Of a DNA stretch of 64,000 nt, positions 39,342 to 41,388 are shown piece after piece; position 1 is the first letter of the stretch; each line of letters begins with the position of its first letter. The position numbers and the translations under genes are program-made. A model generated the notes under the pieces. That model searched no databases, had not been told where the DNA came from, and saw only the letters and a list, made by a program, of their open reading frames with translations. The stretch comes from Patescibacteria group bacterium (GTDB lineage: Bacteria > Patescibacteriota > Patescibacteriia > Patescibacteriales > UBA12465), in the NCBI GenBank assembly GCA_034002925.1, contig JAVEZP010000001.1, positions 66,523 through 130,522 on the forward strand. Direction: 5' to 3'.

Positions 39342-39421
39342 AAAATCTTATAAACTAATAATAACAAAAAAAATAATTTTTATCCATCTTTACATAGAAA
39401 TAAAGCCGTTAATATAAGCTC

Positions 39422-39450
39422 TTGACAAGCTTTTATAAATCATATAAGAT
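39422..39450 (+). promoter_or_regulatory. Candidate 16S rRNA promoter P1 (TTGACA-N17-TAAGAT)
   Basis: ttgaca at 39422-39427, 17-nt spacer, taagat at 39445-39450, ~230 nt upstream of the 16S. Confidence 0.45.
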
Positions 39451-39551
39451 GTGGTTAACGAAACATAAAAACTGAATAGATTGATGAAAAACAAGGTATT
39501 TATTGTATCTCTGTTTTTTTCTGTCCTATCTGAAAAGCTTTCGTTAGCACT

Positions 39552-39586
39552 TTGACAATTTCAAACTTGGTGAAATAAAGATAAAA
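39552..39586 (+). promoter_or_regulatory. Candidate 16S rRNA promoter P2 (TTGACA with a weaker downstream -10)
   Basis: ttgaca at 39552-39557. Downstream -10 candidates are ataaag and gataaa. Confidence 0.3.
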
Positions 39587-39674
39587 ATTTTGATGCGAAT
39601 CGGCATCAATTCGGATAATAAATTAACCAGAATCTTTTTCATTATTCTTTCGAGAATAATGATCTCTATATTCA

Positions 39675-41157
39675 ATTAACAGAGAGTTTGATCCTGGCTC
39701 AGGATGAACGCTGGCGGTGTGTCTAAGGCATGCAAGTCGAATGCTAGTAGCAATACTGGCATGGCAAACGGGAGAGTAACACATTGGTAACCTACCTCGA
39801 AGACGGGGATAACCTTGCGAAAGCGAGGATAATACCCGATAGTATGTCAGAACATAAGTTCTGCCATTAAAGCTCCGACGCTTCGAGAGGGGCCTATGTC
39901 CTATCAGCTTGTTGGTAAGGTAAAGGCTTACCAAGGCAATGACGGGTAGCGGGCGCGAGAGCGTGACCCGCCTCACTGGGACTGAGAACTGCCCAGACTC
40001 CTACGGGAGGCTGCAGTCAAGAATCTTCCTCAATGGGCGAAAGCCTGAAGGAGCGACACCGCGTGCATGAAGAAGCCTTTCGAGGTGTAAAGTGCTTTTA
40101 TATGTGACGAAACAATGACGGTAGCATATGAATAAGGGGCTGCTAACCTCGTGCCAGCAGCAGCGGTAATACGAGGGCCCCAAGCGTTATCCGGATTTAT
40201 TGGGCGTAAAGCGTCCGTAGGTGGTTTATCGCATCTCCTGTTAAATCTCGAGGCTCAACCTCGAGTCAGCGGGAGAGATGGACAAACTAGAGACCGGAAG
40301 AGGCAAACGGAATTGCTGGTGTAGGGGTTAAATCCATTAATATCAGCAGGAACATCAAATGCGAAGGCAGTTTGCTAGGACGGTTCTGACACTCAGTGGA
40401 CGAAAGCGTGGGGAGCGAATGGGATTAGATACCCCAGTAGTCCACGCCGTAAACGATGGATACTAAGCATTGGCAGTATCGACCCTGCCAGTGCTGTTAA
40501 TTTAAGGTAACCCGTTAAGTATCCCGCCTGGGGAGTACGAGCGCAAGCTTAAAACTCAAAGGAATAGACGGGGACCCGCACAAGCGGTGGAGCATGTGGT
40601 TTAATTCGACGATAAGCGAGGAACCTCACCAAGGCTTGACATCTAGCTGCAAGGTCTGGAAACAGATCCGCCTTCGAGGGAGCTAGACAGATGCTGCATG
40701 GTTGTCGTCAGCTCGTGTCGTGAGATGTACCGTTAAGTCGGGAAACGAGCGCAACCCTGATCCTATGTTTTATATGTCATGGGAGACTGCCCGTTTTAAA
40801 TGGGAGGAAGGTGGGATGACGTCAAATCAGCATGGTTCTTACGCCTTGGGCAACACACGTGCTACAATGGGCAATACAAAGGGTCGCCAAACCGCGAGGT
40901 GGAGCTAACCCCTAAAAGTTGTCCTCAGTTCGGATTGAAGGCTGAAATTCGCCTTCATGAAGCTGGAATCGCTAGTAATCGTGGATCAGCTATGCCACGG
41001 TGAATACGTTCTCGGGTCTTGTACTCACCGCCCGTCACGTCAAGGGAGTTGGTAGTACCCGAAGGCTCATTTATGGGACGAAGGTAAGACCGATGACAGG
41101 GACGAAGTCGTAACAAGGCATCCGTAGCGGAAGCTGTGGATGGATCACCTCCTTTCT
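39675..41157 (+). rRNA. rrs: 16S ribosomal RNA, complete, not followed by 23S/5S
   Basis: Begins agagtttgatcctggctcag at 39683. Contains gtgccagcagcagcggtaatac (515 region) and ggattagataccc. Ends ggatcacctcctttct at 41157. About 1.48 kb, with no large insertion. Confidence 0.95.
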
Positions 41158-41310
41158 AGGGAGTAATTTATTACTAATATTTATTTATCAGTAATAATTA
41201 GTCGACATCTTATTTATAAGATGGATTATGTCGCGAGATATAGTCAAAAACAAAACTATTATTCGAAGAGGTGCCGATTTGACTCAAAATTTTTATCAGT
41301 TTGAAATGCA

Positions 41311-41338
41311 AAAACTACCTAATTAGGTAGTTTTTTGT
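41311..41338 (+). terminator. Rho-independent terminator downstream of the 16S
   Basis: aaactacct-aatt-aggtagttt followed by tttttt. Confidence 0.6.
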
Positions 41339-41349
41339 TTGAAATAACA

Positions 41350-41377
41350 AAAAGAGAGCTTTAGCTCTCTTTTTTAT
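41350..41377. terminator. Bidirectional terminator (trpS 3' end / 16S region)
   Basis: gagagc-ttta-gctctc hairpin flanked by A- and T-runs. Confidence 0.6.
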
Positions 41378-41388
41378 TTTTATCTGTC

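Follow-up and report, generated by a model that had tools for sequence, protein, structure and literature searches.

The subject of this report is a 16S ribosomal RNA (rRNA) gene located at 39676-41155 on the plus strand of a 64,000-nt stretch of DNA, the whole of which is called the window here (position 1 is its first letter). The gene is very probably, at about 0.9, that of a Falkowbacteria-like bacterium of the class ABY1, within the Patescibacteria or Candidate Phyla Radiation (CPR), organised as an independent monocistronic transcription unit. An earlier annotation made from the letters alone (the sequence-only reading) had marked out 39342-41380 as a stand-alone 16S gene unlinked from 23S and 5S; that span comprises the gene together with its leader, trailer and terminators, and its unlinked state is borne out by Rfam searches, a 23S probe and the loci of relatives.

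The gene matches the Rfam model RF00177 with 1442 bits (gathering score 50) over model positions 1-1533 of 1533, the alignment giving a length of 1480 nt and no insertions. Its 3' terminus, GGATCACCTCCTTTCT at 41140-41155, is canonical and the anti-Shine-Dalgarno motif (CCUCC) is intact. The 3' end had been described as divergent, which holds for the primer sites in its vicinity (two mismatches at the 1492R site and one at the 1391R site) but not for the extreme terminus, so that the divergence is only mild. This is probably the sole 16S copy of its genome. Open reading frames (ORFs) within the 16S, for example at 39623-39976 (-), were rejected as real genes.

As regards the origin of the DNA, one genome per GTDB species was scanned for the variant of the 515F primer site found in this gene, which gave at least 120 loci (L-numbered below). 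The proposed CPR origin finds support in these: the 16S is 93-95% identical to those of Candidatus Falkowbacteria metagenome-assembled genomes (95.1% to L001, whose 16S is partial, 93.5% to L011 and 92.8% to L113) and 97.8% identical to that of L030, the closest species representative among the matches listed, while the partial 16S sequences of L075 and L006 reach 98%. NCBI taxonomy places the Falkowbacteria within the Parcubacteria group of Patescibacteria, and the genomes so named by NCBI fall, together with Patescibacterium danicum, in the class ABY1 (PMC11809585); in equating the two names we follow the SILVA/NCBI usage of that paper, and the placement made here follows 16S similarity. The genome of P. 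danicum has about 0.92-0.94 Mb, a G+C content of 35.4% and single rRNA genes (PMC11809585), and the G+C content of the window (33-38%) fits that value.

The absence of the partner genes was established in several ways. Rfam, used at the gathering threshold and again permissively at E<=1, found no large-subunit rRNA (LSU), no 5S and no spacer transfer RNA (tRNA) in the 64 kb, and the absence claimed earlier for 20 kb around the gene was thereby extended to the whole window. BLAST probes made from the 5' end and domain V of 23S, with which a 23S hidden by introns was also sought, gave no match in the window; the validation of these probes consists in agreement with Rfam on the L031 locus only. 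Since no LSU match exists in the window, any 23S would have to be at a distance of over 22.8 kb on the downstream side or over 39.7 kb on the upstream side. Two definitions of unlinked genes have been published, namely no 23S within 1500 bp (Brewer et al.) and a distance of more than 2000 bp with opposite-strand genes in between (Lui et al.); no 23S is found within either distance of the 16S 3' end. Moreover, co-transcription with a 23S is excluded by the features that intervene downstream, a conserved terminator (T1) followed by the convergent trpS-trpB genes.

The same arrangement is seen in related organisms. When 36 related Patescibacteria loci, whose 16S is some 75-98% identical to that of the window and whose sequence continues for 1.2-7 kb past it, were scanned with Rfam, a 16S was present in all 36 and a 23S within 1.5 kb of it in none; the sole 23S found among them starts 5.9 kb past the 16S, in a Berkelbacteria genome. 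The 23S probe was positive in three of the 120 listed loci, two of which belong to distant, linked lineages.

A rival possibility is that the gene is an orphan or extra copy in a "mixed" genome that also holds a canonical 16S-23S-5S operon. Such mixed arrangements are known in bacteria (10.1101/705046), and the remainder of the source genome lies outside the view of this analysis. Nevertheless, 5S, 16S and 23S are each represented by one gene in complete genomes of ABY1 (PMC11809585), and in all five circular ABY1 genomes surveyed the 16S and 23S are unlinked or on opposite strands, 14.7-298 kb apart, with 23S and 5S still separated by 58-255 bp (PMC8172020). The present 16S is also of full length and accompanied by conserved expression and processing signals, and a second, linked operon in the same genome is quite improbable.

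A different objection would be that the locus is an assembly artefact, in which the 16S has been joined to unrelated flanks in a chimeric contig while the true locus runs on into a 23S. Ribosomal RNA genes are classic points of breakage and misjoining in short-read metagenome assemblies, and the G+C content changes from 44% in the 16S to about 34% in the flanks, although rRNA genes of AT-rich genomes normally stand out in this way. On the other hand, the same leader is found upstream, and the same trailer, terminator and trpS downstream, in at least 12 independent assemblies. Searches with the window proteins (tblastn) recovered the order 16S, convergent trpS, tRNA-Pro/Ala/Pro cluster, LytR-family protein and Der GTPase in L030, L017, L098, L075, L067, L036, L049, L001 and L081, with a part of that order also present in L047, L066 and L097; these include a closed chromosome of 896 kb (OW818634.1, which is L017) and contigs of hundreds of kb. 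Furthermore, the Joint Genome Institute (JGI) metagenome contig L173 is 98.6% identical to window positions 36437-41344 and runs on into the end of trpS. Both 16S junctions are therefore found again in a nearly identical strain that was assembled separately, by which a chimeric join is effectively excluded. The leader and the trailer are in addition complementary to each other, as would not be expected of random joins. The artefact is thus scarcely credible, and the earlier statement that no such break is evident in the window agrees with the synteny and with L173.

The organisation of the gene as an independent unit is best considered from its 5' flank, by means of an alignment of 12 genomes that took in 400 nt before the 16S and 300 nt after it. 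The top sigma-70-like match of the region (10/12) lies at 39422-39450 (+), with the -35 hexamer TTGACA at 39422-39427, a spacer of 17 nt, the -10 hexamer TAAGAT at 39445-39450 and an extended element TATAAGAT. The pattern CTCTTGACA-N17-TATAAAAT stands at the same position in 11 of the 12 related genomes (consensus TTGACA-N17-TAtAAaAT). Transcription is predicted to start near 39457, which would give a leader of about 220 nt.

Two further elements were recognised in this leader. The first is a hairpin at 39487-39520 (+; -9.6 kcal/mol, z-score -3.1) that lies between an A-run and a U-run, in the manner of a terminator or of a boxB, and is conserved in all 12 aligned genomes between the promoter and the second element. 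The latter is a boxA-like block, GCACTTTGACAAT, at 39547-39559 (+), which is replaced in relatives by the aligned variants CTTAAAAA, GTTAAAAAT or CTTTGAAAAT. The block was likened to the boxA of the E. coli rrn operons (UGCUCUUUAACAA), a search of the literature for the string having given no usable reference.

The sequence-only reading had credited the gene with promoters in the plural. One of them, at 39422-39450, is conserved in relatives and stands. The other would begin at a perfect TTGACA hexamer (39553-39558), so that tandem promoters P1 (39422) and P2 (39553) might replace the promoter and boxA proposed here; E. coli, with P1 and P2 in tandem, provides the paradigm for such an arrangement (PMC5179076). 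In the scan, no acceptable -10 hexamer passes within 16-18 nt of the P2 hexamer, whose aligned counterpart in 10 relatives is TTAAAA, TTAACA or TTGAAA, inside the block that resembles boxA. Since this TTGACA is neither conserved as a -35 nor accompanied by a usable -10, it is read as boxA-like: the supposed second promoter is more likely to be a boxA-like element, and tandem promoters are an unlikely arrangement.

Covariation was found in a predicted processing helix that encloses the 16S, with its 5' strand at 39586-39614 (+) in the leader and its 3' strand at 41263-41291 (+) in the trailer. RNAcofold and duplexfold give the leader-trailer duplex -73.6 kcal/mol, and in the window RNAcofold extends the pairing to about 39558-39620 with about 41257-41306, so that the helix would have some 27-47 bp. 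RNAalifold recovered the same helix from 10 genomes. A count gave 27 pairs, with 96.2% of the alignment cells paired and six pairs changed on both sides; the covariation score was reached by none of 500 shuffles, and sliding the partner strand by 1-3 columns lowered the pairing to 19-48%. A helix enclosing the 16S is the usual substrate of RNase III for the release of pre-16S, and cleavage of this one is predicted.

On the 3' side, the terminator T1 lies at 41310-41336 (+; -12.3 kcal/mol, z-score -4.6), directly past the trailer strand and about 155-180 nt beyond the mature 16S 3' end. Its place is held by a stem-loop and T-run in all relatives, with stems that differ and show compensatory changes. 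The unit therefore has, as far as the comparison reaches, a promoter of its own in 11 of 12 genomes and a T1-type stem-loop in all relatives. A second hairpin, T2, at 41349-41375, which like T1 has a T-run after it, folds on both strands (-13.6 and -14.1 kcal/mol, z-score -4.5) as a bidirectional terminator and is not conserved in relatives. In L173, a 141-aa ORF (89-514 of that contig, minus strand there) occupies the strand of the 16S between T1 and T2, where the window has only 41337-41348; its absence amounts to a strain-level indel of about 490 bp between L173 and the window, which has left the two terminators in tandem. Taken together, the lack of conservation of T2, its folding in both directions and the ORF of L173 indicate that the tandem hairpins are T1 and a terminator common to trpS and the gene that is missing here. 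Of the two terminators formerly attributed to the 16S, T1 is therefore retained, while the second hairpin belongs to trpS. A sub-threshold Rfam match to the "rimP leader" at 41280-41374 is merely the two terminator hairpins and was discarded.

Several points weigh against the interpretation of the locus as an independent, unlinked unit. The term "unlinked" is based on absence within 64 kb, on the relatives and on the literature, the presumed 23S-5S locus of this genome lying outside the view. What is said of the promoter and start site, and likewise of processing and termination, consists of in silico predictions. The leader hairpin with its U-run resembles a terminator placed before the gene; it may be a boxB analogue, an attenuator or a protein site. 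The assignment of boxA, in turn, is putative and depends on resemblance to consensus sequences. Finally, metagenome contigs were scanned for the conserved leader motif TATCTYTGTTTTTTTCTGT, with at least 120 matches; 32 of the 120 matches listed are similar to the window, about 30 of them being 16S leaders of the clade or leaders cut by contig ends. None of these is followed by a 23S, in a listing that is not exhaustive, and the scan thus yields no evidence for a regulatory module common to both units.

From these elements a working scheme can be proposed. The 16S would be transcribed alone, from a single strong promoter of sigma-70 type, which is conserved and situated about 220 nt before the gene. 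The nascent leader would carry the hairpin and the boxA-like element, of a kind on which other bacteria build the rRNA antitermination complex and which may serve that end here. Once made, the trailer would pair with the leader into the long helix, RNase III would cut it and free the pre-16S, and RNA polymerase would stop at T1. The 23S-5S pair would have a promoter of its own at another place in the genome; with 23S and 5S made from a separate unit, the stoichiometry of the ribosomal subunits would be set by two promoters and not by co-transcription.

The gene also differs from the universal primers in a way that may affect its detection. The 515F site, at 40151-40169 (+), reads GTGCCAGCAGCAGCGGTAA; the single mismatch that had been noted from the sequence is a change of C to A, which falls on position 12 of the primer. 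The mismatch is lineage-wide: the variant occurs in at least 120 species-representative genomes, nearly all of them labelled Patescibacteria/CPR or bearing placeholder names, with a few Dehalococcoidia and a few members of other groups. Carriers of this variant (GCAGCAGCGG) outside CPR are L004, L041, L050 and L112 (Dehalococcoidia), L106 (Poribacteria) and L120 (Bacilli), so that it is not confined to CPR. In the genome collection, many 16S contigs of CPR type are labelled "uncultured Gammaproteobacteria" or "Bacteroidetes", apparently as placeholder or mis-binned names. The under-detection in amplicon surveys that had been suggested agrees with the reported coverage of ABY1 sequences by the V4 pair 515F/806R, which is 0.2-0.5% (PMC10943839). 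The redesigned primer 515F_Mod is degenerate at position 12 (PMC10943839) and, in the primer scan, matches the 16S of the window perfectly. Surveys of V4 with standard primers would miss such organisms, as would long-amplicon methods that span 16S, internal transcribed spacer and 23S, a message which is already known.

A further observation concerns the orientation of the gene with respect to replication. The minus strand holds 78% of the coding bases of the window and the plus strand 22%, and the 16S and all five tRNA genes are on the plus, C-rich strand. The cumulative GC skew falls monotonically across the 64 kb. The GC skew of the coding strand, taken at four-fold degenerate sites, amounts to +0.01 in genes of the minus strand and to -0.50 in those of the plus strand, being negative in all 11 of the latter; whichever way the genes point, the minus strand is richer in G and T at these sites, and the skew of the intergenic sequence agrees. 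By the usual skew rule the minus strand is the leading one, and the 16S and the five tRNA genes would consequently be transcribed head-on to replication. The strand effect has the same direction in 12 of 13 loci of relatives (at least 86% 16S identity, with genes on both strands), while the majority of distant CPR loci have the reverse sign, which is the conventional one; a cruder version based on GC3 was also computed. The 8-kb loci of the relatives are noisy for skew, and the leading and lagging strands are assigned by composition only, with neither origin nor terminus in view.

It is about an even chance, and is put forward as a lead, that the one 16S in view in members of this clade lies on the lagging strand and would be transcribed head-on to replication, contrary to the almost universal orientation of rRNA genes. 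Selection is held to act strongly on rRNA operons to keep them co-oriented with replication (PMC11040001). No report of lagging-strand rRNA genes in CPR was found in the literature search, and neither GC skew nor dnaA is mentioned in the publications that describe complete genomes of ABY1 and CPR. If true on closed genomes, the arrangement would be an exception to the co-orientation rule, and it would fit very slow growth and low rRNA transcription.

With respect to the neighbouring genes, the 16S is followed by trpS (tryptophan-tRNA ligase) at 41389-42378 (-), convergent with it, as the sequence-only reading had proposed; the assignment relies on PF00579 (7.9e-79) and on TIGR00233, whose 361 bits exceed the cutoff of 177. 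At least 12 relatives have this gene next to their 16S. The operon of trpS also includes, on its upstream side, trpB (tryptophan synthase beta; 42412-43638, minus strand; TIGR00263, 558.6 bits, cutoff 392), which appears without trpA and is present in L075 and absent from the close relative L030. A candidate T-box leader at 43777-43941 (-) precedes trpB-trpS; it scores 52.4 bits against a gathering value of 93 (E=1.1e-10 in a 501-nt search), with the T-box/antiterminator sequence intact and 12 nt in place of 86 Stem I model positions. It would regulate the trpB-trpS operon.

On the other side, a 59-aa ORF (39162-39341, minus strand) and the 1373-aa ORF at 35030-39151 (-) are divergent from the 16S, the latter being the giant protein gene already recognised upstream. 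The 1373-aa product has no Pfam or NCBIfam match, and weak similarity was found in one relative, L034. Another long ORF, of 1953 aa, is located at 4784-10645 (-). Large surface-type proteins are typical of ABY1 genomes (PMC11809585).

ARAGORN placed tRNA genes at two places only in the window, a cluster of Pro-GGG, Ala-CGC and Pro-CGG at 44353-44588 (+) and a pair of Ile-TAT and Val-GAC at 58879-59113 (+). The tRNA-Ile of this pair (58879-58952, plus strand) has the anticodon TAT, which is an uncommon bacterial route to AUA, most bacteria using a lysidine-modified CAT anticodon.

In the context of what is known of CPR genomes, the stand-alone 16S and the 515F mismatch are ordinary traits of the lineage, already in the literature. 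Patescibacteria are among the clusters with unlinked rRNA genes, defined by a distance above 1500 bp (Brewer et al. 2019/2020, 10.1101/705046), and 16S and 23S are unlinked in 27 of 34 circularised CPR genomes, with a clade-specific pattern (Lui et al. 2021, PMC8172020). Unlinked genes being the rule in most CPR classes, the locus adds one example to a documented pattern; the view of them as a trait of streamlined or host-associated organisms is the interpretation of the literature. Two aspects go slightly beyond it: the conservation-backed map of a stand-alone 16S unit, which could guide transcript mapping in CPR co-cultures, and the compositional hint of a clade-wide lagging-strand 16S.

Compared with the unlinked genes of CPR and ABY1, the window is alike in that the 16S stands alone and is followed by terminators and protein genes on the opposite strand; the papers on those genomes differ in giving no anatomy of promoter, leader, processing helix and terminator such as is mapped here. 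Genes for 16S in CPR are known for variant primer sites, shortened helices and frequent insertions (PMC10943839; PMC9297842). The length of the gene (1480 nt) is close to the modal length of CPR 16S, about 1.47 kb. Unlike 42% of CPR 16S genes, it has no insertion or intron, and it keeps the anti-Shine-Dalgarno sequence that is missing in part of the Parcubacteria (PMC10943839; PMC9297842).

The E. coli operons rrnA-H, with P1/P2 promoters, a boxB-boxA-boxC leader and the order 16S-tRNA-23S-5S, share with the window unit a strong consensus promoter, a leader with hairpin and putative boxA-like element, and an enclosing helix. The window unit differs in that spacer tRNA, 23S and 5S are all missing from it, that its trailer runs directly into an intrinsic terminator and that a single promoter is supported. 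The closest experimentally studied analogue is Helicobacter pylori, in which the 16S is likewise apart from 23S-5S and a typical long flanking stem serves as the entry for RNase III (Iost et al. 2019, PMC6582327). That species belongs to an unrelated phylum, and the cleavage which has been shown there by experiment is, for the 16S of the window, predicted from covariation.

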